Shown here: piece by piece, positions 2,768-46,022 of the stretch
Position numbering within the stretch: the first letter of the stretch is position 1
How the letters are laid out: each line of letters begins with the position of its first letter
Origin: a virus
Virus record (IMG/VR): IMGVR_UViG_3300027749_000039
Span: 126,603 to 190,602 of that record
Strand: one strand, 5' to 3'
Length of the DNA: 64,000 nucleotides
Translations under genes and position numbers: made by a program
The notes under the pieces: generated by a model
Database searches by the model: none
What the model was told of the DNA's origin: nothing
What the model saw: only the letters and a program-made list of their open reading frames with translations

Positions 2768-2798
2768 TTTGTAAATAAAAAACTTTTTCGTATCTTTG
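2768..2798 (+). promoter_or_regulatory. Bacteroidota sigma70-type promoter (TTTG-N19-TATCTTTG) for the Met/His/Trp/Phe/Ser/Lys tRNA-serS unit
   Basis: Matches the -33 TTTG / -7 TAnnTTTG consensus with a 19 nt spacer. Confidence 0.8.
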
Positions 2799-2831
2799 TT
2801 GTATAATAACAAACAATAAGAAATTAAATAT

Positions 2832-2903
2832 AGCGGGATAGAGCAGTGGTAGCTCGCAAGGCTCATAACCTTGAGGTCATTGGTTCGAATCCAGTTCCTG
2901 CTT
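2832..2903 (+). tRNA. tRNA-Met(CAT), initiator-like body
   Basis: Cloverleaf, anticodon arm CAAGG-CTCATAA-CCTTG, fMet-like GAGCAG..GGTAGCTCG D arm; A1:U72 paired. Confidence 0.9.
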
Positions 2904-2918
2904 CAAAAAAAGACATAT

Positions 2919-2990
2919 TGCGGAGTAGAGCAGTGGTAGCTCGCAAGGCTCATAACCTTGAGGTCGTTGGTTCGAATCCAGCCTCCGTTA
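2919..2990 (+). tRNA. tRNA-fMet(CAT), second copy
   Basis: Same D/anticodon arms as copy 1; U1xU72 mismatch, A73. Confidence 0.9.
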
Positions 2991-3029
2991 CTAAAAAATT
3001 AAAAACAATAACAACTTAAAAATTATTTT

Positions 3030-3119
3030 ATGAAACATTTCAGCTCACATAAACATTCGTTTAAATTCTGGTTTAGCAATCAGGGTTCGGTAGAGTTTTG
3101 TTTCAAAAATGCTTCATAA
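3030..3119 (+). CDS. Attenuator leader peptide L1: MKHFSSHKHSFKFWFSNQGSVEFCFKNAS
   Basis: 3 His, 6 Phe, 1 Trp, 6 Ser; directly upstream of a terminator and His/Trp/Phe/Ser tRNAs. Confidence 0.85.
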   Translation: MKHFSSHKHSFKFWFSNQGSVEFCFKNAS

Positions 3120-3138
3120 GAAGTTATTGAAATGAACT

Positions 3139-3179
3139 AAAAATCTCCGAACTTTATATAAAGTTCGGAGATTTTTTTT
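3139..3179 (+). terminator. Intrinsic terminator of attenuator L1
   Basis: AAAAATCTCCGAACTT-TATATA-AAGTTCGGAGATTTTTTTT. Confidence 0.9.
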
Positions 3180-3183
3180 ATAT

Positions 3184-3257
3184 GGTGATATTGGTGTTAG
3201 CGGTTAGCATGGGACCCTGTGAAGGTCTAGGGACGGATTCGAATTCCGTATATCACC
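3184..3257 (+). tRNA. tRNA-His(GTG)
   Basis: GGACC-CTGTGAA-GGTCT; encoded G-1 opposite C73. Confidence 0.9.
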
Positions 3258-3327
3258 CAAGAAAAGGTAGATTAAACAAAGAAATTATTTAATTGAAACT
3301 AGTATAGATTAAATAATCGTATTGATG

Positions 3328-3379
3328 GTAAAGGTAAGCGGTTAAGCGGAAGATAGTGGTTCGAATCCACTCCTTTTCA
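3328..3379 (+). ncRNA. tRNA-like unit lacking an anticodon arm
   Basis: Acceptor GTAAAGG/CCTTTTC, perfect T arm AGTGG-TTCGAAT-CCACT, only 20 nt between them. Confidence 0.5.
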
Positions 3380-3390
3380 CGAAATAATAT

Positions 3391-3464
3391 GGTGATTGTA
3401 GCTCAATTGGTAGAGCGCAGGTTTGTGGAACCTGAGGTAGCGGGGTCGGAGCTCGTCAATCACC
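3391..3464 (+). tRNA. tRNA-His(GTG), second copy
   Basis: CAGGT-TTGTGGA-ACCTG; G-1:C73; atypical T loop GTCGGAG. Confidence 0.85.
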
Positions 3465-3469
3465 CAATA

Positions 3470-3542
3470 AGGTAATCAAGCTAACTTGGTAACGTGGGAG
3501 ATTCCAACCCTCCAGTCGTCGGATCGTAACCGGCTGTTCGTG
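3470..3542 (+). pseudogene. Degenerate tRNA-Trp(CCA)-like unit
   Basis: Anticodon loop TTCCAAC, intact T arm and G73, but the 5' acceptor strand does not pair. Confidence 0.45.
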
Positions 3543-3553
3543 CAAAATAAAAT

Positions 3554-3626
3554 ACGGGTATGGTGAAAATGGCTATCATTTTTGTCTCCAAAACAAAAGT
3601 TCCGGATTCGAATTCTGGTGCCCGTG
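3554..3626 (+). tRNA. tRNA-Trp(CCA)
   Basis: TTTGT-CTCCAAA-ACAAA; ACGGGTA/TGCCCGT; G73. Confidence 0.9.
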
Positions 3627-3633
3627 CTAAAAT

Positions 3634-3705
3634 GGTGTTGTAACATAGAGGTTTATGTGTTGATCTGAAAAATCAAAAATGCCAGATCGTTACTGGCCGA
3701 CACCA
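3634..3705 (+). tRNA. tRNA-Phe(GAA)
   Basis: TTGAT-CTGAAAA-ATCAA; A73; T loop ATCGTTA. Confidence 0.85.
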
Positions 3706-3768
3706 CAAAAATAAATTAAAAAAGGAAGACGCACCCATTTTATATATAAGTAAATAACAAATATAAAA

Positions 3769-4647
3769 ATGGGTGCGAATTCAAAAGAATGGACAGAAAA
3801 GGAAAAAGAAATACTTTTTAAATATTTTCCGAGTATGGGTAGTAATTATTGTTCAGAATTAACAGGAAGAACAAAAAGAGCTTGTCAAGAAATGGCAAAA
3901 AAATTAAAATTGAAGAGAGATTTAGATAAGTATGAAGATAAAGAAAAATTAGAGGAGTTAGTTAAAGGTTGTAAATCATATACAGAATGTGTAATAAAAT
4001 TGGGGTTATCTCCCAGATGTTCTGGTAATTTTCAGACTATCAAAAAATATATCACAATATATAATATAGATATTTCACATTTTGAAAATGGATTTCAAAT
4101 AGGCAACAAACCTCAAAATAAGAAAGAATTATCAGAAGTTTTAATAGAAAACTCTTTTTTTAGCAGAACTCATCTTAAAGAGAGACTATATAAAGAGGAA
4201 TTAAAAAAGAAAGAATGTGAGATATGTGGAATTGGTGAAGATTGGTTTAATGGAACTAAAATAGTCCATATTTTAGACCATATAAATGGTGAGCCTTATG
4301 ATAATCGTCTTGAAAATTTAAGAATCGTTTGTCCTAATTGTAATTCAACATTAGAAACAAATTGTGTTGGGAATAAAGTTAATAAAATATATGATTCTAA
4401 AAAAGATGAATATAAAAGTGAAAAAACACATAAAAAATGTAATTGTGGTAAAATAATTTTGAAAGAAAGTAAATTTTGTTCAGAATGCAATGCCAAAAGT
4501 AAAAGAAAAATTATTAATAGACCAACATTTGAAGAATTAGTTAAGTTAATAGAAGAAAATGGTAATACTGGAACAGGTAAAATATACGGCGTTAGCGAAG
4601 CTGTCATAAGAAAATGGTTAAAACAATATAAAAATAAATTAGTATAG
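3769..4647 (+). mobile_element. HNH homing endonuclease inside tRNA cluster 1
   Basis: CEICG...LDHINGEPYDNRLENLRIVCPNCNS; C-terminal RPTFEEL..YGVSEAVIRKW HTH; N-terminal Myb-like repeat. Confidence 0.9.
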
Positions 4648-4660
4648 AATATACTAAAAT

Positions 4661-4735
4661 ACAGACTAGTCTATGGTAGTCGGCGGAACTCCAAATCCCG
4701 TGTGACTCGAGTCAGTTCAATTCTGGCAGTCTGTG
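4661..4735 (+). tRNA. tRNA-Trp(CCA), second
   Basis: Loop CTCCAAA, acceptor ACAGACT/AGTCTGT, G73; one mismatch in the anticodon stem. Confidence 0.7.
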
Positions 4736-4745
4736 CTAATAAATT

Positions 4746-4829
4746 GGAAAGTCCTAATTAGGAGTAGTTAGCCGTTTTGAAAACGGTGAAGGTGTAATAG
4801 CCGTGGGGGTTCGAGTCCGTCACTTTCCG
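4746..4829 (+). tRNA. tRNA-Ser(TGA)
   Basis: GCCGT-TTTGAAA-ACGGT, long variable arm, G73. Confidence 0.8.
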
Positions 4830-4840
4830 CAAAATAAAAT

Positions 4841-4918
4841 ACGGGTTTCGTCTAATATTTAAGACACCTCCCGGCAAGGGAGTTAATGTTGTAAGGGTGA
4901 AAATCCTACAACCCGTGC
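4841..4918 (+). pseudogene. tRNA-like unit with unassignable anticodon loop
   Basis: Acceptor ACGGGTT/AACCCGT plus G73 (Trp-like), D stem GTCT/AGAC, loop GGCAAG (6 nt), T loop GTGAAAA. Confidence 0.45.
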
Positions 4919-4933
4919 AAAAAGATTAAAATT

Positions 4934-4969
4934 ATGAAACAATATAAACAGATTAAACAAAAACAATAA
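4934..4969 (+). CDS. Lys-rich mini leader peptide MKQYKQIKQKQ
   Basis: 4 AAA codons in 11, directly upstream of three tRNA-Lys genes; followed by two mutually exclusive hairpins. Confidence 0.6.
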   Translation: MKQYKQIKQKQ

Positions 4970-5001
4970 GTTAGGCTCCTATGGATGCTTAACAAATATA
5001 A

Positions 5002-5076
5002 GCATTCGTAACTCAGAGGCAGAGTATTCGGCTTTTAACCGAAGTGGCGAGATTTCAAAATTCTCCGGATGCACCA
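5002..5076 (+). tRNA. tRNA-Lys(TTT), CCA encoded
   Basis: TTCGG-CTTTTAA-CCGAA. Confidence 0.9.
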
Positions 5077-5079
5077 AAA

Positions 5080-5151
5080 CCGCTTGTAGCAAACTGGTGT
5101 AGGCAAGAGTCTTTTAAACTCTGGGGCTGGGTTCGACTCCCGGCAGGCGGA
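5080..5151 (+). tRNA. tRNA-Lys(TTT), second
   Basis: AGAGT-CTTTTAA-ACTCT. Confidence 0.9.
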
Positions 5152-5156
5152 CAATA

Positions 5157-5228
5157 GATTTTATATGTCAATGGTTAGACTAGCAGACTCTTAATCTGCG
5201 GATCTGAGTTCGAGTCTCAGTGAAATCA
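5157..5228 (+). tRNA. tRNA-Lys(CTT)
   Basis: GCAGA-CTCTTAA-TCTGC. Confidence 0.9.
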
Positions 5229-5244
5229 CAAAAAATTTTTAAAA

Positions 5245-6513
5245 ATGTTAGAAATAAAATTATTTAGGCAAAATAAGGACCTAATTATAGAAGGACTTAA
5301 AAAGAAAAATTTTAAGCAACTTAATTTAGTTGATGAAATTATTAAATTGGATGAAGATTTAAGAAAATTAAAACAGGAAACTGAAAATTTAACTTCTGTT
5401 ATTAATAAAAATAATAGCGAAATTGCAAGATATATTAAAACAGATGCAGTTAAGGTAGAAAATATTAAAACTCATAATATTATTTTAAATGAAAAAATTG
5501 AGGAATTAACTAATATACTAAATCAAACTGAAAACGAGTTATTGGATAATTTAATTCAATTACCAAATCTTCCAAATCAAATTGTAGAAATAGACAATGG
5601 TAATGAAGCAACTAATGGTAATGTTATTATAAGAGAAAACTTAACTCAGTGTACACAAGGTAAACCTCATTGGGAAGTAATTAAAGATTTAAATATAGTT
5701 AGTTTTGAACTAGGAACTAAAATTACTGGTGCTGGGTTTCCTGTTTATATCGGAAAAGGCGCAAGATTACAAAGAGCTTTAATTCAATATTTTTTAGATT
5801 ATAATACTAATGCTGGTTATACAGAATATAATATACCATTAATGGTTAATTATGATTCTGCATATGGTACAGGACAACTCCCTGATAAAGAAGGTCAAAT
5901 GTATTATGCTGAAAAGGATAATTTATACTTAATTCCAACAGCAGAAGTTCCTTTAACTAATATCTTTAGAGATGAAATAGTTAATTTGCCCATAAAAATG
6001 ACAGGACATAGTGCTTGTTTTAGAAGAGAAGCTGGCGCACATGGTAAAGAAGTAAGAGGGTTAAATCGAGTTCATCAATTTGAAAAAGTTGAAATAGTTC
6101 AATTAGTTCAACCTGATAAAAGTTATGAAGTATTGGAAGAAATGGTTTTACATGTTGAGAACTTGATAAAAAGCTTAGAATTACCATATAGAATACTTAA
6201 ATTAAGTGGCACAGATATGAGTTTTGCATCTGCTTTAACTTATGACTTTGAAGTATATAGTGCGGCTCAAGACAGATGGTTAGAAGTAAGTTCTGTGAGT
6301 AATTTTGAAACTTTCCAATCTAATCGTATGAAAATTAGATTTAAAGAAGATAAAAAGAACAAATTAGTTCATACTTTAAATGGAAGTTCTTTAGCATTAC
6401 CAAGAATAATGGCTTGCTTATTAGAAAATAATCAAACACATGAAGGTATAAAAATACCAGAAGTATTAATACCGTATTACGGTGACAAATTTTTAACAAA
6501 TGGAAAATTATAA
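5245..6513 (+). CDS. serS: Seryl-tRNA synthetase
   Basis: N-terminal coiled coil, LIPTAEVPL, CFRREAG..RGLNRVHQFEKVE, HTLNGSSLALPR. Confidence 0.97.
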   Translation: MLEIKLFRQNKDLIIEGLKKKNFKQLNLVDEIIKLDEDLRKLKQETENLTSVINKNNSEIARYIKTDAVKVENIKTHNIILNEKIEELTNILNQTENELLDNLIQLPNLPNQIVEIDNGNEATNGNVIIRENLTQCTQGKPHWEVIKDLNIVSFELGTKITGAGFPVYIGKGARLQRALIQYFLDYNTNAGYTEYNIPLMVNYDSAYGTGQLPDKEGQMYYAEKDNLYLIPTAEVPLTNIFRDEIVNLPIKMTGHSACFRREAGAHGKEVRGLNRVHQFEKVEIVQLVQPDKSYEVLEEMVLHVENLIKSLELPYRILKLSGTDMSFASALTYDFEVYSAAQDRWLEVSSVSNFETFQSNRMKIRFKEDKKNKLVHTLNGSSLALPRIMACLLENNQTHEGIKIPEVLIPYYGDKFLTNGKL

Positions 6514-6745
6514 AAAATTAATAGAGAAATATAAAGTTGAAATAGTAGATTATATTATTTCTTCAAAAGACCAATTAGAAGAATACCGTAAAAAGTATTT
6601 AGGCGCAAATGGAATTATAAAACAAGTTTATAATCAATTAAAACAAGTTCCTGCTGAAAAAAGAAAACAAGCAGGAGAATTGTTAAGAGGATTAAAAGAT
6701 TGTGCTGAAAATAAATATGAAAATTCTTTTGTTAATTCAAAATAA
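6500..6745 (+). CDS. Stand-alone PheRS alpha-subunit N-terminal coiled-coil domain
   Basis: LEEYRKKYLGANGIIKQVYNQLKQVPAEKRKQAGELL matches the PheS N-terminal pattern (..RvkYLGkkG..l..lp.eeR..aG..lN); no catalytic domain follows. Confidence 0.7.
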   Translation: MENYKKLIEKYKVEIVDYIISSKDQLEEYRKKYLGANGIIKQVYNQLKQVPAEKRKQAGELLRGLKDCAENKYENSFVNSK

Positions 6746-6758
6746 TTTCGTATCTTTG
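6728..6758 (+). promoter_or_regulatory. Bacteroidota-type promoter for the Ser/Arg tRNA cluster
   Basis: TTTG-N19-TATCTTTG. Confidence 0.8.
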
Positions 6759-6807
6759 TAAAAGAAAATAAACAAAAAAGCATTTTAACAATATAATATA
6801 TACAATT

Positions 6808-6864
6808 ATGAAAACAATATCATCGTCTAGTCGCAGTAGTTTAACTTTGGAAATCCAGAGATGA
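6808..6864 (+). CDS. Attenuator leader peptide L2: MKTISSSSRSSLTLEIQR
   Basis: TCA TCG TCT AGT CGC AGT AGT run upstream of Ser(GCT), Arg(ACG), a Ser-like unit and Ser(GGA). Confidence 0.85.
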   Translation: MKTISSSSRSSLTLEIQR

Positions 6865-6883
6865 TAGTGTATGTATATACTTG

Positions 6884-6915
6884 AAGCCTTGGATTGTAAA
6901 ATTCAAGGCTTTTTT
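6884..6915 (+). terminator. Intrinsic terminator of attenuator L2
   Basis: AAGCCTTGGATT-GTAA-AATTCAAGGCTT-TTTT. Confidence 0.85.
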
Positions 6916-7136: not shown

Positions 7137-7142
7137 CTAATA

Positions 7143-7230
7143 GGAAAGTTGGCAGAGCGGTTTAATGCGCTGGCACTGAAGCCGGTGACTGGCAAAAGCC
7201 GGTCCGTGAGTTCGAATCTCATACTTTCTT
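7143..7230 (+). pseudogene. Ser-type tRNA with a 6-nt anticodon loop (ACTGAA) and U73
   Basis: Ser-like body with long variable arm; the loop is one nt short of canonical CTTGAAA. Confidence 0.6.
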
Positions 7231-7234
7231 ATAT

Positions 7235-9371: not shown

Positions 9372-10028
9372 ATGAAAAAATACGATAAGATTCCATATTG
9401 GAATAAAGGATTATTTGACTCTGATTGTATCGGGTTTAATAAAGAAGATGGTTCAAATATGAGATTTGAGTGGTCAAAAAAACGTGGGTTTTATAAGTTT
9501 GGAACTCGTAATGTAATGATTAATGAGAAAGATGAAAACTTTGGAAAAGCTATTCCTTTATTTTTAGAAAAATACGGCGAAGATTTACCAAGAGTATTTG
9601 TTAATAAATATAAAAAAGTAGAAAACTTTGTTGTATTTGGTGAATATGTTGGTGAAAATTCCTTCGCTGGATGGCATGACCCAAATGATAAAATGGATAT
9701 TATTTTATTTGATGTTAATCAATATAAAAAGGGGTTCATTTCTCCATATGAGTTTTTAGATAATTTTGGACATTTATCAATTCCTTCTGTTATTTATCAA
9801 GGTAAATATACACAAGAATTAATAGACAATGTTAGAAAGAATGTTTTTAACTTAAAAGAAGGTTTAATTACTAAAGGAATTACTTATACTAAAAAAGAAG
9901 GTGAAGCAATTTGGCAAGTAAAAGTTAAGACTAACGACTGGCTTAAAAAAGTAAAAGAAAAGCTAGGTGATAAAGCTTTAGCTGATGAATTAAATGGAGA
10001 TAAATCATTAATAGCAGAATACATATAA
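9372..10028 (+). CDS. RNA ligase-like nucleotidyltransferase
   Basis: KEDG motif I, FGTRN, VFGEY, LFDV, EGLI and VKVK motifs. Confidence 0.75.
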   Translation: MKKYDKIPYWNKGLFDSDCIGFNKEDGSNMRFEWSKKRGFYKFGTRNVMINEKDENFGKAIPLFLEKYGEDLPRVFVNKYKKVENFVVFGEYVGENSFAGWHDPNDKMDIILFDVNQYKKGFISPYEFLDNFGHLSIPSVIYQGKYTQELIDNVRKNVFNLKEGLITKGITYTKKEGEAIWQVKVKTNDWLKKVKEKLGDKALADELNGDKSLIAEYI

Positions 10029-10031
10029 CTT

Positions 10032-10736
10032 ATGGAAAGAGAATATAAAAGAACTGATTGGGATATTATATCCTTCAAAACAAAAGAAGGTGAAATAATT
10101 GATGAAACACATGCTGAATTTGAAAAACTATGTAAAATGCATGAAGATTGGGAATTTAGTTGTGATACGGTTTCTGATTGTAGAAACCAATTTTATAAAG
10201 AACAAGTCAAGAGCAATGGATTTCCGGTAATATACTCTGTTAGAAATAATGTATTTTGTCCTACTGGAATTGGTTATCAATCCGAGATACTAACAATCGG
10301 TGATGAATATGGAACAACTTTTCGTGGTTCAAATCCAAAAGAAAGAAGTTGGGGTAAAATACTTGCGTTTTATCAAATAAACGAACAAATGTGTATAGAA
10401 GAAAAAAGAGGTGGTCAGCCAGTATCAAATATGATAGCTAAAATTGATCCCAACATACCATGGAAATATAAAACAATTTTTGAAAAATCACTAACTGATG
10501 ATGTTTTACATGAAATAGCTAAATTATCTGGTGTATTTGAAAATGATGAATACTTTTTTGATACATATGATGGTGGCATTAGAGTTATTGATTCTTTGAG
10601 TGAAGTAGGATATAGATTACAAATGTATCCAAATGGTGCGGTAAATTGTATATCAAAACATGATATGTGCCCGGACGAATATAAAGCTAAAGAACTTTAT
10701 AAATTTATTTTAAAAATTTTTGATGAAAAAAATTAG
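10032..10736 (+). CDS. Hypothetical protein
   Basis: 234 aa ORF between the two ligases. Confidence 0.6.
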   Translation: MEREYKRTDWDIISFKTKEGEIIDETHAEFEKLCKMHEDWEFSCDTVSDCRNQFYKEQVKSNGFPVIYSVRNNVFCPTGIGYQSEILTIGDEYGTTFRGSNPKERSWGKILAFYQINEQMCIEEKRGGQPVSNMIAKIDPNIPWKYKTIFEKSLTDDVLHEIAKLSGVFENDEYFFDTYDGGIRVIDSLSEVGYRLQMYPNGAVNCISKHDMCPDEYKAKELYKFILKIFDEKN

Positions 10737-11424
10737 TAAAAGGCAGGTAGCCCCAGACTACCATAGAATACCACACTTTAATAAGGAAATTTCCAACATG
10801 ACGCACGATGACATCATATTGGAAACAGATATACAATTTCCTATTGAGTGTTGGATTCAAGAAAAACTCGATGGTGCTAATACTGGAATTGGATGGCTAA
10901 ATGATGGTCCTATATTAAGGAATAAAGAACATATTTTAAAGAAAGGATATTCTAAAATTAAAACACCGGCAAAAAAGCAATTTACATCTGCTTGGAATTG
11001 GGTGCATAAACATAAAGAAGATATTGAGTTTATCCAAGAAATGTGTTATTCACAAATTACTATATTTGGTGAGTGGTTATATGCGCAACATTCGTTGCAT
11101 TATGATAAATTACCTGATTTATTTATAGCATATGATATATGGTCAGTAGAGGATAATTCTTATTTAAGTCCAGAAATAGTGGATACATTATTATCACAAA
11201 CTGATATAAAATATATTAAACCTATAAAAACTACTCTTAATTCAATACAAGATATAATTGAATTATCCGAAAAAGAATCAGATTATAGAACTGGCATAAG
11301 AGAAGGTATAGTTATTAAACATGCTGAGGGTAGATTATGTACTCAGATGTATAAAGTGGTAAATAATAAGTTTATTCGCAGAGAAGATTTTAATAAAGAA
11401 TTAATAAAAAACACCGTTAAATAA
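10720..11424 (+). CDS. RNA ligase (Rnl2-like)
   Basis: QEKLDGAN, FGEWL, FIAYDI, REGIVIK, YKVV. Confidence 0.85.
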   Translation: MMKKISKRQVAPDYHRIPHFNKEISNMTHDDIILETDIQFPIECWIQEKLDGANTGIGWLNDGPILRNKEHILKKGYSKIKTPAKKQFTSAWNWVHKHKEDIEFIQEMCYSQITIFGEWLYAQHSLHYDKLPDLFIAYDIWSVEDNSYLSPEIVDTLLSQTDIKYIKPIKTTLNSIQDIIELSEKESDYRTGIREGIVIKHAEGRLCTQMYKVVNNKFIRREDFNKELIKNTVK

Positions 11425-15981: not shown

Positions 15982-16012
15982 TTTGCTATTTCAAAACTTT
16001 ATCGTATATTTG
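15982..16012 (+). promoter_or_regulatory. Bacteroidota-type promoter for the Tyr/Glu/Ala/Gly cluster
   Basis: TTTG-N19-TATATTTG. Confidence 0.8.
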
Positions 16013-16059
16013 CAATACAATAATCAACAAACAAACAAAACATTTTAAATAAAAATTTT

Positions 16060-16158
16060 ATGAAAACTACAATAATCACAACACAAGTAATCGGCGCATA
16101 TGAAGCGGGTTATGCCTATGAGGGAACATCTCATGGAGTTGGTAAGTTATGTAGTTAA
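16060..16158 (+). CDS. Attenuator leader peptide L3: MKTTIITTQVIGAYEAGYAYEGTSHGVGKLCS
   Basis: GAYEAGYAYEG block is composed only of Gly/Ala/Tyr/Glu, the four amino acids of the downstream tRNAs. Confidence 0.88.
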   Translation: MKTTIITTQVIGAYEAGYAYEGTSHGVGKLCS

Positions 16159-16180
16159 TCATAAAAAGATATAATTACTT

Positions 16181-16215
16181 AAAGCATCCAACTCAAAAAG
16201 TTGGATGCTTTTTTT
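16181..16215 (+). terminator. Intrinsic terminator of attenuator L3
   Basis: AAAGCATCCAACT-CAAAA-AGTTGGATGCTTT-TTTT. Confidence 0.9.
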
Positions 16216-16225
16216 ATGTTAAATT

Positions 16226-16831: not shown

Positions 16832-16890
16832 CACAGAAAAGGTTATCTGGGTGGATTTTTCAACAGAAAATGAAACTCCGAGCCTTAGAC

Positions 16891-16964
16891 GGGGCGGCAT
16901 GTACCAAGGCTGGCGAAGAACACTTGCAATGTTCCTGTGGTGAGTTCAATTCTCATCCGCTCCA
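16891..16964 (+). tRNA. tRNA-Ala(TGC)
   Basis: GAACA-CTTGCAA-TGTTC; G3:U70. Confidence 0.88.
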
Positions 16965-17013
16965 CGAAGTGAAGGAAAACACGATAAACCCGTCTGCTAG
17001 GACGTAAAATAAC

Positions 17014-31091: not shown

Positions 31092-31122
31092 TTTGCAAAT
31101 TAAAAACTTTATTGTATCTTTG
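31092..31122 (+). promoter_or_regulatory. Bacteroidota-type promoter for tRNA cluster 4
   Basis: TTTG-N19-TATCTTTG. Confidence 0.8.
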
Positions 31123-31206
31123 CAATACAATAATCAATAAAGAAACAAATAACGATAAAAAGTCCATAGAGGAAAAAAGTAGTTTAAAAATTAAATATAT
31201 AATATA

Positions 31207-31308
31207 ATGAAAAACATTAATAGAAATAATAATACCATAAATTTAGTCATAAATAACGTGAATACGTTATGCGTGATTAGAGGAGTTATGGGGTTAAGTC
31301 TATTATGA
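31207..31308 (+). CDS. Attenuator leader peptide L4: MKNINRNNNTINLVINNVNTLCVIRGVMGLSLL
   Basis: Residues 3-25 are all N/I/R/T/L/V/C, exactly the downstream tRNA set. Confidence 0.88.
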   Translation: MKNINRNNNTINLVINNVNTLCVIRGVMGLSLL

Positions 31309-31335
31309 TAATATTTCAAATATATTATAATATTT

Positions 31336-31369
31336 AATCTCAAACTCAAAAAGTTTGAGATTTTTTTTT
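31336..31369 (+). terminator. Intrinsic terminator of attenuator L4
   Basis: AATCTCAAACT-CAAAA-AGTTTGAGATT-TTTTTTT. Confidence 0.9.
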
Positions 31370-31379
31370 ATGTTAAAAT

Positions 31380-34348: not shown

Positions 34349-34379
34349 TTTGTAGTTTCAAAACTTTATTGTATCTTTG
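34349..34379 (+). promoter_or_regulatory. Bacteroidota-type promoter for the Leu/Met tRNA-asnS unit
   Basis: TTTG-N19-TATCTTTG. Confidence 0.8.
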
Positions 34380-34431
34380 TGTTATAATTAAAAATAGAAA
34401 ACAGACAAACAGAATTTAATATATAAATAAT

Positions 34432-34500
34432 ATGAAAAACATCAATCTAAATATGAATTTGCTTAATCTAATGGAAACATTGGACAGGATTCTTATATAG
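34432..34500 (+). CDS. Attenuator leader peptide L5: MKNINLNMNLLNLMETLDRILI
   Basis: Leu codons CTA x2, TTG x2, CTT x2; Met x3; Asn x5. Confidence 0.88.
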   Translation: MKNINLNMNLLNLMETLDRILI

Positions 34501-34524
34501 ATAACTTTATCATAAAGTTTTTAT

Positions 34525-34558
34525 AAAATCCTGTTCACAATCTGAACAGGATTTTTTT
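34525..34558 (+). terminator. Intrinsic terminator of attenuator L5
   Basis: AAAATCCTGTTCA-CAATC-TGAACAGGATTTT-TTT. Confidence 0.9.
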
Positions 34559-34561
34559 ATT

Positions 34562-44378: not shown

Positions 44379-44409
44379 TTTGTATAATCACAAATACTTC
44401 GTATCTTTG
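44379..44409 (+). promoter_or_regulatory. Bacteroidota-type promoter for the Asp/Pro/Gln tRNA-glnS unit
   Basis: TTTG-N19-TATCTTTG. Confidence 0.8.
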
Positions 44410-44483
44410 TGTAACAAAAGCAAAGAATAAATACTTAATTAAAGACAACAAAAAAGCATTTTTAAAATACAATATATACTATT

Positions 44484-44579
44484 ATGAAAAACATTCTAAA
44501 CATACAAAACCCTCAACAACCGCAAGTTGATGTCGATCAGGATCCTGATACGATGAGGACTAACCATGTTAGAATGTAA
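44484..44579 (+). CDS. Attenuator leader peptide L6: MKNILNIQNPQQPQVDVDQDPDTMRTNHVRM
   Basis: 5 Gln, 3 Pro, 4 Asp in codons 8-22. Confidence 0.88.
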   Translation: MKNILNIQNPQQPQVDVDQDPDTMRTNHVRM

Positions 44580-44602
44580 ATGAATTATATTACATTTTTA
44601 AT

Positions 44603-44635
44603 AGCCAGTTAGTCGAAAGATTAACTGGTTTTTTT
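44603..44635 (+). terminator. Intrinsic terminator of attenuator L6
   Basis: AGCCAGTTAGTC-GAAA-GATTAACTGGTT-TTTTT. Confidence 0.9.
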
Positions 44636-44659
44636 GTTTTATATAGCGAGAATTAGTAA

Positions 44660-45037: not shown

Positions 45038-45967
45038 ATGGATATAATTAAAATTATAAATGAAAGTTTTTCCATTAATGATTTAGCCAAAAAATTATAT
45101 GGTTATTCTAATGGCAAGAGCAATAAAAAAGCAATAGAAGTTTTAAAACAAAACGGATTTGATATATCTTTTTTTGACGGAAAAAGTAAAAATAGAAAAT
45201 ATCAAAAAATAAAAATTATTTGTCCTATTTGTTTTGTGGAATTTGAAACAACTGAAAATGGTAAAAAAACATGTTCTTCTTCATGTTCTAATTCTTATTT
45301 TCAACACGGGAAAAATAATCCTGATTTTGATCAAGAAAAATATGAGGAAAGATATAAAAAAGTATCTAATACATTAAAAACTAATATTCCTTGGAATAAA
45401 GGCAAAAATGATAAGGCAAAAATAAAAACATGTCTAAATTGTAAAATTGAATTTGAACCTAAAACACACACACAGAAATATTGTTGCAAAAAATGCCAAT
45501 TTTCATGTAAAGAGTATAGAAAATTATTAAGTGACAATGTTAAAGAAAGAATAAAAAATGGAACACATAAAGGTTGGCAATCAAGAAATATTGAGAGTTA
45601 TCCTGAAAAATTCTTTAAAAAAGTATTAAAAAATAATGGTATTGAATATATACCAAATAAAACAATAATAAAAAAAGACTATAATATAGAAGGCAATGGT
45701 AATTATTTTTTAGATTTTTATATAAAAGAAGGAAATATAGATTTAGAAATAGACGGCAAGCAACATGATTATAGGGTCGAACATGATAATGAACGAGATA
45801 ACAATTTATCAAAGCATTTCAACATTTATAGAATAAAATGGCAGTCAATAAATAGCGAAACAGGAAAACAATATATAAAAAAAGAAATTAAAAAATTTAT
45901 AAAATATTATAACAAAATGAAAAACTTAACTTTACAACAACAGCAACAAATGATTAAACTAGATTGA
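45038..45967 (+). mobile_element. DUF559/Vsr-like homing endonuclease with Zn fingers; last 16 codons are the Gln leader
   Basis: YFLDFY...LEIDGKQHD..R....YRIKW; CPIC, CxxxC motifs. Confidence 0.8.
45917..45967 (+). CDS. Attenuator leader peptide L7: MKNLTLQQQQQMIKLD (in frame with the endonuclease ORF)
   Basis: CAA CAA CAG CAA CAA run, typical MKN start; terminator and three tRNA-Gln follow. Confidence 0.85.
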   Translation: MKNLTLQQQQQMIKLD

Positions 45968-45988
45968 TGGTATTGTATAGTTATGTAT

Positions 45989-46020
45989 AAACCTATCAGT
46001 CTAAACTGATAGGTTTTTTT
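45989..46020 (+). terminator. Intrinsic terminator of attenuator L7
   Basis: AAACCTATCAGT-CTAA-ACTGATAGGTTT-TTTT. Confidence 0.9.
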
Positions 46021-46022
46021 AT

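Follow-up and report, generated by a model that had tools for sequence, protein, structure and literature searches.

Organization of the Lys element

The window analysed in this work is a stretch of 64,000 nt from IMG/VR virus record IMGVR_UViG_3300027749_000039 (positions 126,603 to 190,602), which makes up the final 64 kb of a 190.6-kb contig and has a GC content of 28 %. We read the contig as that of a large phage with a Bacteroidota host; the nearest cellular homologues of its seryl-tRNA synthetase (SerRS, gene serS; ca. 60–63 % identity) include sequences from metagenome-assembled genomes labelled Chitinophagaceae, Flavipsychrobacter and Bacteroidota, and the Bacteroidota promoter motif TTTG-N17-23-TAnnTTTG is over-represented (24 matches versus 5.5 expected). 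Directly upstream of the first of three tRNA-Lys genes lies a short sequence, designated here the Lys element, which contains an 11-codon open reading frame (mini-ORF) and two mutually exclusive hairpins, A and B, the latter formed with the 5′ end of the tRNA itself. This arrangement suggests a switch in which translation of the mini-ORF would govern the folding of the tRNA. The features of the locus, in window coordinates, are the following:

4920–4933, + strand: A-rich unstructured stretch before the start codon (AAAAAGATTAAAATT), without a Shine-Dalgarno sequence
4934–4969, + strand: mini-ORF, MKQYKQIKQKQ*, 11 codons, with stop codon TAA at 4967–4969
4970–4993, + strand: hairpin A, in which 4970–4979 pairs with 4983–4985 and 4987–4993; it starts 1 nt past the stop codon
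4980–4991, + strand: anti-tRNA segment, comprising the loop and 3′ arm of hairpin A and equal to the 5′ arm of hairpin B
4999–5010, + strand: 3′ arm of hairpin B, comprising three leader bases and nt 1–9 of the tRNA-Lys (acceptor 5′ strand, U8 and A9)
5002–5076, + strand: tRNA-Lys(UUU) no. 1 (ARAGORN; Rfam tRNA, 54.6 bits), with encoded CCA; the gene proposed to be gated
5080–5152, + strand: tRNA-Lys(UUU) no. 2 (ARAGORN, Rfam), outside hairpin B
5157–5229, + strand: tRNA-Lys(CUU) (ARAGORN, Rfam), outside hairpin B

The next ORF is serS, starting at 5245. A first-pass annotation of this DNA had described the mini-ORF, two short overlapping hairpins and a tRNA-Lys(TTT) directly behind them. The letters and coordinates of the mini-ORF are as given there, the tRNA does follow immediately, and both hairpins are present and longer than described. 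Thus, the arms reported for A (GTTAGGC, 4970–4976, and GCTTAAC, 4987–4993) are part of a 10-bp stem with one bulge (−10.6 kcal/mol, z −3.0), and those reported for B (ATGCTTA, 4985–4991, and TAAGCAT, 4999–5005) are part of a 12-bp stem (4980–4991/4999–5010; −11.7 to −12.6 kcal/mol, z −2.2), which 4 of 200 shuffled sequences equalled in folding. The annotation was also right that hairpin B sequesters the tRNA acceptor, but not on the extent, as nt 1–9 are hidden instead of the first four. The two hairpins have similar energies and compete for 8 nt in the 3′ arm of A. GGATGC, a sequence within the anti-tRNA segment, is also that of the 3′ acceptor strand of the tRNA, and the duplex of the segment with tRNA nt 1–9 (−10.2 kcal/mol) is more stable than the mean of shuffled sequences (−3.6 kcal/mol, p = 0.003).

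The dependence of the choice between A and B on the ribosome was modelled by masking the ribosome footprint. The minimum-energy fold of the full-length sequence is hairpin A plus the tRNA cloverleaf (−29.1 kcal/mol), and masking the footprint of a ribosome at the stop codon changed it to hairpin B plus a misfolded tRNA (−24.9 kcal/mol). In the masked sequence, the probability of pairing between the acceptor 5′ strand and the spacer was 1.00, versus 0.45 in shuffles.

The mini-ORF has no Shine-Dalgarno sequence, an absence that is usual in Bacteroidota. Among all ATGs of the genome its start context ranks at the 92.5th percentile, and among the starts of long ORFs at the 30th; it is compatible with that of real starts. 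Codons 2, 5, 8 and 10, all of them AAA, specify Lys (4 of 11 codons, versus 8.7 % Lys in the proteome).

The absence of a terminator and of a U tract, which the first-pass annotation had pointed out, was borne out, and an intrinsic terminator within the element was rejected: no terminator-like site was found in 4934–5230, whereas strong terminators were detected at 3139–3176 and 6883–6912. A promoter of its own was rejected as well, because no Bacteroidota-type promoter motif was found in 2799–6727; the Lys element is therefore internal to an operon starting at 2768. A cmscan search of Rfam at E ≤ 1 returned only tRNA matches in 4660–5228, and nothing in 4921–5001.

A short ORF rich in Lys and Gln (K/Q-rich) can arise by chance at 28 % GC, and indeed 20 of 42 matches to our patterns in IMG/VR were chance ORFs of this type with no tRNA behind. 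The evidence from the window alone, with z values of about −2 to −3, is therefore modest; it becomes strong in the comparison with relatives, from which the case for more than chance comes.

Relatives of the Lys element

Relatives were found in two ways, through SerRS, with no reference to the sequence of the ORF, and through DNA pattern scans. The phage SerRS relatives recovered are 66–89 % identical and led to contigs with an 11-codon ORF before the first tRNA-Lys(TTT); the pattern scans added at least six further elements. The ORFs of the relatives are:

L001 and L003, found through SerRS: MKQIKQKQKQV*
L007 and L009, found through SerRS: MKQIKRKQVKR*
L012, found through SerRS: MKQIKRKQGKR*
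L013, found by pattern: MKQIKQKQKQV*
L014, found by pattern: MKQIKRKQKQVS*
L097, found by pattern: MKQIKRKQN*
L111, found by pattern: MKQYKQIKQKSKL*
L157, found by pattern: MKQIKRKQKQV*
L173, found by pattern: MKQIKRKQS*

Together with that of the window, these make 12 elements from at least seven lineages; L013 and L014 are IMG/VR viral contigs. Among the pattern matches listed, any with a tRNA close behind had tRNA-Lys(TTT), and the chance matches had no tRNA. A broad pattern scan of IMG/VR returned 37 loci, of which only L013 and L014 were real elements; the rest, chance K/Q-rich ORFs without a tRNA, served as a negative control. A search of viral contigs with a single SerRS protein found no relative, and a SerRS alignment search of viral contigs found 51 loci, with SerRS of ≤55 % identity and none with the element. 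Likewise, a blastn search with 4600–5300 against deposited phage genomes matched only tRNA bodies and identified no cultured relative. In lineage L010/L011, the tRNA-Lys(TTT) gene is located elsewhere and has neither the ORF nor the pairing. Both in the window and in the relatives, the element occupies an internal position in an operon, behind genes for tRNAs or endonucleases, and the sequence AAGATTAAAA is also found upstream of the ORF in L173 and L097.

Every element contains an ORF of 9–13 codons (30–42 nt) starting with MKQ(I/Y)K, directly before the first tRNA-Lys(TTT). There are three to five Lys codons per ORF, and all 47 of them are AAA, versus a genome usage of 83 % AAA. The length and the sequence of the ORF vary past codon 5. 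Measured from the base at which the pairing of hairpin A begins, the end of the in-frame stop codon is at −5 to +1 nt in all 12 elements, and the first stops of the other two frames are situated elsewhere in all but one case. Hairpin A, too, is present in each of them (−9 to −17 kcal/mol, z from −2.2 to −4.8), with stem sequences that are quite different in four lineages; the alignable stems share seven consensus pairs, of which two show compensatory changes and none is broken. Hairpin A ends 4–16 nt before position +1 of the tRNA in all lineages, and U tracts are absent behind both A and B throughout the 12 elements. Once the footprint at the stop codon is masked, the loop and 3′ arm of A are base-paired, in the minimum-energy fold of each of the 12 elements, to the tRNA, beginning at its nt 1. 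This alternative pairing reuses 5–9 nt of the 3′ arm of A and ranges from −7.5 to −21 kcal/mol, reaching ca. 17–18 bp in L001 and a duplex of −21.6 kcal/mol in L111; in the L001 group it extends into the D arm.

Pairing between the spacer and its own tRNA

We compared the spacers of seven lineage representatives with dinucleotide-shuffled spacers. Both the duplex energy and the pairing probability of the acceptor 5′ strand were significant (Fisher p ~1e-6 each), with the reservation that the lineages are related, so that the p-values are not strict probabilities and the combined ones overstate independence. The pairing is specific to tRNA-Lys: values of p ≤ 0.05 were obtained for 9 of the 11 Lys tRNAs preceded by the ORF versus 1 of 71 control tRNAs, which were other tRNAs from the same genomes with upstream spacers of ≥40 nt (Mann-Whitney p = 7e-7). 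No such pairing was seen for Lys tRNAs that lack the ORF.

The 5′ sequences of the first tRNA-Lys differ among the lineages, with six variants of the acceptor stem (acceptor 5′ strands GCATTCG, GCATTCT, GCGCTTA, GCGCTAT, GTCCTCA, GACCTCA, CCTCACG and GGCCTTG), and the best fit of each spacer is to the tRNA of its own element. Assigning the spacers to the tRNAs as they occur gave the single best score among 5,040 permutations when nt 1–22 were considered; the permutations as good or better were 3 of 5,040 for nt 1–12 and 31 of 5,040 for nt 1–9. This covariation provides the strongest argument for selection on pairing B.

A proposed ribosome-sensed folding switch

The first-pass annotation had proposed a tRNA folding switch controlled by translation, a reading that gains support from the conservation in the relatives of the ORF, the spacing of its stop codon to A, hairpin A itself and a pairing that tracks the tRNA of each lineage. 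In our estimate, the chances are even that the Lys element is a ribosome-sensed RNA folding switch within a phage tRNA operon, in which the speed of AAA decoding would set the maturation of tRNA-Lys(UUU) no. 1.

Behind the preceding tRNA-like gene, the RNA contains, in order, the ORF with its four AAA codons, hairpin A at the stop codon, the anti-tRNA stretch and the tRNA. In this layout, which is that of a classical attenuator, the 5′ arm of A is segment 2, its 3′ arm (anti-tRNA) segment 3, the tRNA 5′ strand segment 4 and the tRNA's own 3′ acceptor strand segment 5. We infer that the ORF is translated and that the position of the ribosome selects between A and B. With Lys-tRNA in short supply, uncharged or damaged, ribosomes would stall at AAA codons 2, 5 or 8; a stall at an early AAA would let A form during transcription, leaving the tRNA 5′ strand free, so that the cloverleaf could fold and be processed. 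Conversely, with fast reading of AAA the ribosome would reach the stop codon and, once this occupies its A site, cover or melt the whole 5′ arm of A (roughly 4970–4980), and the freed 3′ arm would capture nt 1–9 of the emerging tRNA in hairpin B, blocking the acceptor and D stems. A precursor in the B form would probably be a poor substrate for RNase P, resulting in less mature tRNA-Lys. The outcome would be a negative feedback without a terminator, in which more tRNA-Lys(UUU) matures when decoding of AAA is slow. Since A plus the cloverleaf is the more stable fold at full length, B would have to persist as a kinetic trap, or else a failure of processing, or decay, would have to make it irreversible. 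Somewhat more tentatively, at a little under even chances, the element could be seen as a self-sensing tRNA homeostat, with maturation gated by the decoding speed of the tRNA's own codon and no terminator, protein factor or ligand involved.

Several observations weigh against this model. At equilibrium, A plus the cloverleaf is favoured over B (−29.1 versus −24.9 kcal/mol). Of the three Lys tRNAs, hairpin B involves the first alone, and the regulatory gain looks small unless B has further effects. Lys codon 10 is so near A that a ribosome stalled on it would cover part of the hairpin. Gln codons (4 of 11, versus 2.7 % in the proteome) are enriched in the mini-ORF as much as those for Lys, and the ORFs of the relatives often use the rare CAG for Gln and also the rare CGA; sensing of Lys does not explain the Gln enrichment. 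The first 16 nt of the ORF hardly vary in nucleotide sequence, synonymous changes (CAA/CAG, ATA/ATT) are few, an open frame of 11 codons is not improbable in A-rich DNA, and similar K/Q mini-ORFs arise by chance elsewhere. To these are added the relatedness of the lineages, already mentioned, and the weakness of the duplex test for L007 and the L001 group when nt 1–9 alone are considered.

Leader-peptide attenuators before other tRNA arrays

A short leader ORF and a strong terminator, the latter abutting the first tRNA, lie before each of seven other tRNA arrays in the window. The cassettes, with the start and the characteristic residues of their leaders, are:

2768–3176, + strand: operon start region, with a promoter motif (2768–2798), two tRNA-Met genes, leader 1 (3030, MKHFSSHKHSFKFWFS...) ahead of His, His, Trp and Phe tRNAs, and a terminator (3139–3176)
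6728–6912: leader at 6808, SSSSRSS, ahead of Ser, Arg, Ser and Ser tRNAs
15982–16225: leader at 16060, GAYEAGYAYEG, ahead of Tyr, Tyr, three Glu, Gly and Ala tRNAs
31092–31379: leader at 31207, NINRNNNTINLVINNVNTLCVIR, ahead of Leu, Ile, Arg, Leu, Val, Asn, Val, Asn, Thr, Ile, Thr and Cys tRNAs
34349–34561: leader at 34432, LNMNLLNLM, ahead of three Leu and one Met tRNAs
44379–44659: leader at 44484, VDVDQDPD, ahead of three Asp tRNAs
45917–46022: leader at 45917, QQQQQ, ahead of three Gln tRNAs

A Bacteroidota-type promoter motif is present in six of the seven cassettes, and none was found before the leader at 45917. Six of the leaders start with MK followed by N, T or H, the leader at 3030 having K, H. 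The amino acids in which each leader peptide is rich are exactly those of the tRNAs behind it, and the true assignment of leaders to arrays was the best of 40,320 permutations. When the Lys mini-ORF was matched as a leader, its own array ranked first; moreover, Lys is rare, codon 2 aside, in the leaders that do not govern Lys tRNAs. Since codon-matched leaders precede the seven arrays, the phage employs translated leaders as sensors for its tRNA arrays. Our literature search found no published account of leader-peptide control of tRNA genes.

The Lys element resembles these seven attenuators in its MK start, in carrying the codons of the downstream tRNAs and in belonging to the same genome, and the presumed logic would be shared, a tRNA being made when its codons are read slowly. 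It differs from them in that it has neither the strong intrinsic terminator next to the first tRNA nor the promoter motif found in six of the seven, and in that it pairs with the tRNA itself.

The sixth leader (44484) also contains runs of Pro and Gln codons, yet only Asp tRNAs lie behind it; no tRNA-Pro was detected in the window.

Alternative explanations

The same sensor could act on the whole downstream transcript instead of on the folding of one tRNA, with the B conformation or the loss of A leading either to pausing of the RNA polymerase and factor-dependent termination or to entry of an endonuclease and degradation of the Lys array together with the SerRS message. Such an output would suit the fact that B reaches only tRNA no. 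1, yet two further Lys tRNAs and serS are in the same unit; the spacing of 4–16 nt between A and position +1 of the tRNA is compatible with a hairpin-dependent pause, and B is long in some lineages, such as those of L001 and L111. However, a U tract is found in 0 of 12 elements, in several lineages B, with only 7–12 bp, is short for a substrate of RNase III, and the complementarity always begins exactly at nt 1 of the tRNA, pointing to the tRNA as the target. We consider this output unlikely.

Roughly the same low probability is assigned to an untranslated structured spacer, in which A would be a processing or stability signal, a fixed pairing between leader and tRNA would order or time 5′ processing, and the ATG and stop codon would be by-products of a conserved A-rich motif. 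It is against this idea that the in-frame stop tracks the foot of A through ORFs of 9, 11, 12 and 13 codons, with the other frames stopping elsewhere, that A is made first and excludes B, so that a fixed role for B needs A to be opened, and that the same genome has seven translated-leader devices with the same MK start. Conversely, an untranslated spacer would agree with the conservation of the 5′ part of the ORF in nucleotides and not only in peptide, with the enrichment of Gln codons to the same degree as Lys, and with the finding that the openness of the ORF alone is not significant.

The element might also be a neutral, decayed relic, either of a leader attenuator or of the 3′ end of a duplicated tRNA-Lys, whose terminator was lost upon fusion of arrays. 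The lack of its own promoter and terminator, the MK start resembling those of the full leaders, and the identity of GGATGC in the anti-tRNA stretch to the tRNA 3′ acceptor strand would fit such an origin. Nevertheless, the element is kept in at least seven lineages with SerRS 66–89 % identical and differing tRNA-Lys genes, hairpin A shows compensatory changes, and the anti-tRNA stretch is retuned for each tRNA, whereas a neutral relic would not covary. Furthermore, 0 of 12 elements have a trace of a U tract, and 4921–4993 has no likeness to a tRNA beyond a 6-mer. A relic is thus very improbable. Finally, a small basic peptide rich in K, Q and R acting in trans (e.g., on ribosomes or tRNA), with the hairpin merely ending or stabilizing its message, has in its favour a basic character kept across lineages, and is scarcely credible given that length and sequence vary after codon 5 and that the tRNA complementarity and its covariation would be left unexplained.

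That the upstream arm of B (tatGGATGCtta) is what remains of a decayed tandem copy of tRNA-Lys, namely its 3′ acceptor strand, was considered separately and rejected: the rest of 4921–4993 is not tRNA-like, the arm is in a conserved hairpin, and it is retuned in each lineage.

Comparison with known regulatory systems

Ribosome-mediated attenuation is a textbook mechanism, exemplified by the leader-peptide transcription attenuators of amino-acid operons (trpL, hisL, pheL, thrL, ilvL) and also of pheST. The folding switch proposed here would share with them a short ORF enriched in the sensed codons (3–5 AAA in all 12 elements), exclusive pairings in which a ribosome at the stop codon frees the downstream arm and an upstream stall does not, and the coupling of the ribosome to the nascent transcript. 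In contrast to these attenuators, the final pairing of the Lys element is no terminator and its 3′ arm is the tRNA 5′ strand, the regulated product would be a tRNA instead of an enzyme, the element lies inside an operon without a promoter of its own, and the proposed output is RNA folding and maturation instead of transcription termination. The Lys element thus lacks two defining features of attenuators, the terminator and the promoter-proximal position.

Similarities also exist with other systems. In the translational attenuation of ermC and cat, the position of the ribosome on a leader ORF picks a hairpin without a terminator, as proposed here; those hairpins mask the ribosome-binding site of the downstream gene and stalling is induced by a drug, whereas the Lys element masks tRNA nt 1–9 (acceptor and D strand) and stalling would come from a shortage of the cognate tRNA. 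T-box riboswitches also tie the translation apparatus to the status of a tRNA and pair with acceptor-end sequences. Nonetheless, they bind uncharged tRNA in trans, without ribosomes and through a conserved specifier loop and T-box, and 4921–5001 has no Rfam match. The effects of leaders on RNase P processing are alike in that pairing of the leader with the acceptor 5′ strand competes with the acceptor stem; to our knowledge, these are a fixed property of the precursor and not a conserved switch coupled to an upstream ORF. As the Lys element would work like an attenuator and fits none of the described families, we class it as a new variant of ribosome-mediated attenuation. No published account of such a Lys folding switch was found in our literature search.

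Attenuation by ribosomes is known to result in transcription termination or in the unmasking of a ribosome-binding site, and the genes known to be under its control encode proteins; in the Lys element, sensing of this kind appears to be applied to a tRNA precursor and its folding. If true, this would be the first case in which the supply of a tRNA is tuned, during RNA maturation, to the speed at which its own codon is decoded, and would imply that large phages regulate their tRNA genes on demand instead of just carrying them. The element is ca. 80 nt long, modular and conserved with natural compensatory variants, which makes it directly testable, and could serve as a compact sensor of tRNA availability. 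The finding also bears on why phages carry tRNA-Lys. This tRNA is a known target of host anticodon nucleases (PMC10264068), and the switch may be a counter-defence that raises phage tRNA-Lys exactly when that of the host is depleted or cut by these enzymes. The first-pass annotation had named PrrC-type anticodon nucleases in this connection; the one observation related to them is the presence of RNA-ligase genes 4 kb downstream.

Other features of the window

ARAGORN identified 45 tRNA genes in the window, which also encodes aminoacyl-tRNA synthetases, homing endonucleases and RNA ligases. The tRNA arrays appear to be shuffled by homing endonucleases. An HNH-like endonuclease gene (3769–4647) interrupts the first tRNA array; in the relatives, an endonuclease gene of DUF559 type (L001:3590–4444) separates the Lys array from serS instead.

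Directly upstream of the mini-ORF, 4841–4920 folds into an 80-nt tRNA-like cloverleaf (−26.5 kcal/mol, z −3.1) with a 5-nt anticodon loop, GGCAA, and a 3′ end ...CCCGTGCA, which was called neither by ARAGORN nor by Rfam; a similar end, ...CGTGCAAAA, is also present at 3540–3548 and in L111. Further upstream, 4745–4829 contains a long-arm tRNA with anticodon TGA (Ser), missed by ARAGORN and with a weak match to the Rfam tRNA-Sec model (25 bits), whose counterpart was called tRNA-Ser(TGA) in L001 and L003. The sequence at 3261–3379 (119 nt) matches the Rfam tRNA model from end to end with 36.7 bits, was not called by ARAGORN either, and looks like a tRNA with an insertion of ca. 45 nt.

Within the Ser/Arg array, ARAGORN predicted a tRNA with a four-base anticodon (ctga) and an enlarged loop (7142–7231). 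A comparatively GC-rich spacer of 181 nt without a called gene separates tRNA-Glu from tRNA-Gly (16833–17013), and might hold another structured RNA. Outside the window, at G000:C1:54412–54485, there is a tRNA with anticodon CTA, which would read TAG and suggests stop-codon reassignment or suppression in part of the phage.

After serS, the window encodes only an 81-aa N-terminal arm of phenylalanyl-tRNA synthetase (PheRS; PF02912, 6500–6745), while relatives L003 (11374–12474) and L004 have, in the same place, a product of 366 aa that includes the PheRS catalytic-core domain (PF01409). The arm encoded in the window may stand alone or be the result of a truncation. An RNA-ligase gene (PF09414) is situated at 9372–10028, ca. 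4 kb downstream of the Lys array, with a second candidate ORF at 10720–11424, and the relatives have one or two PF09414 genes at the corresponding place. These genes could represent a capacity for tRNA repair.

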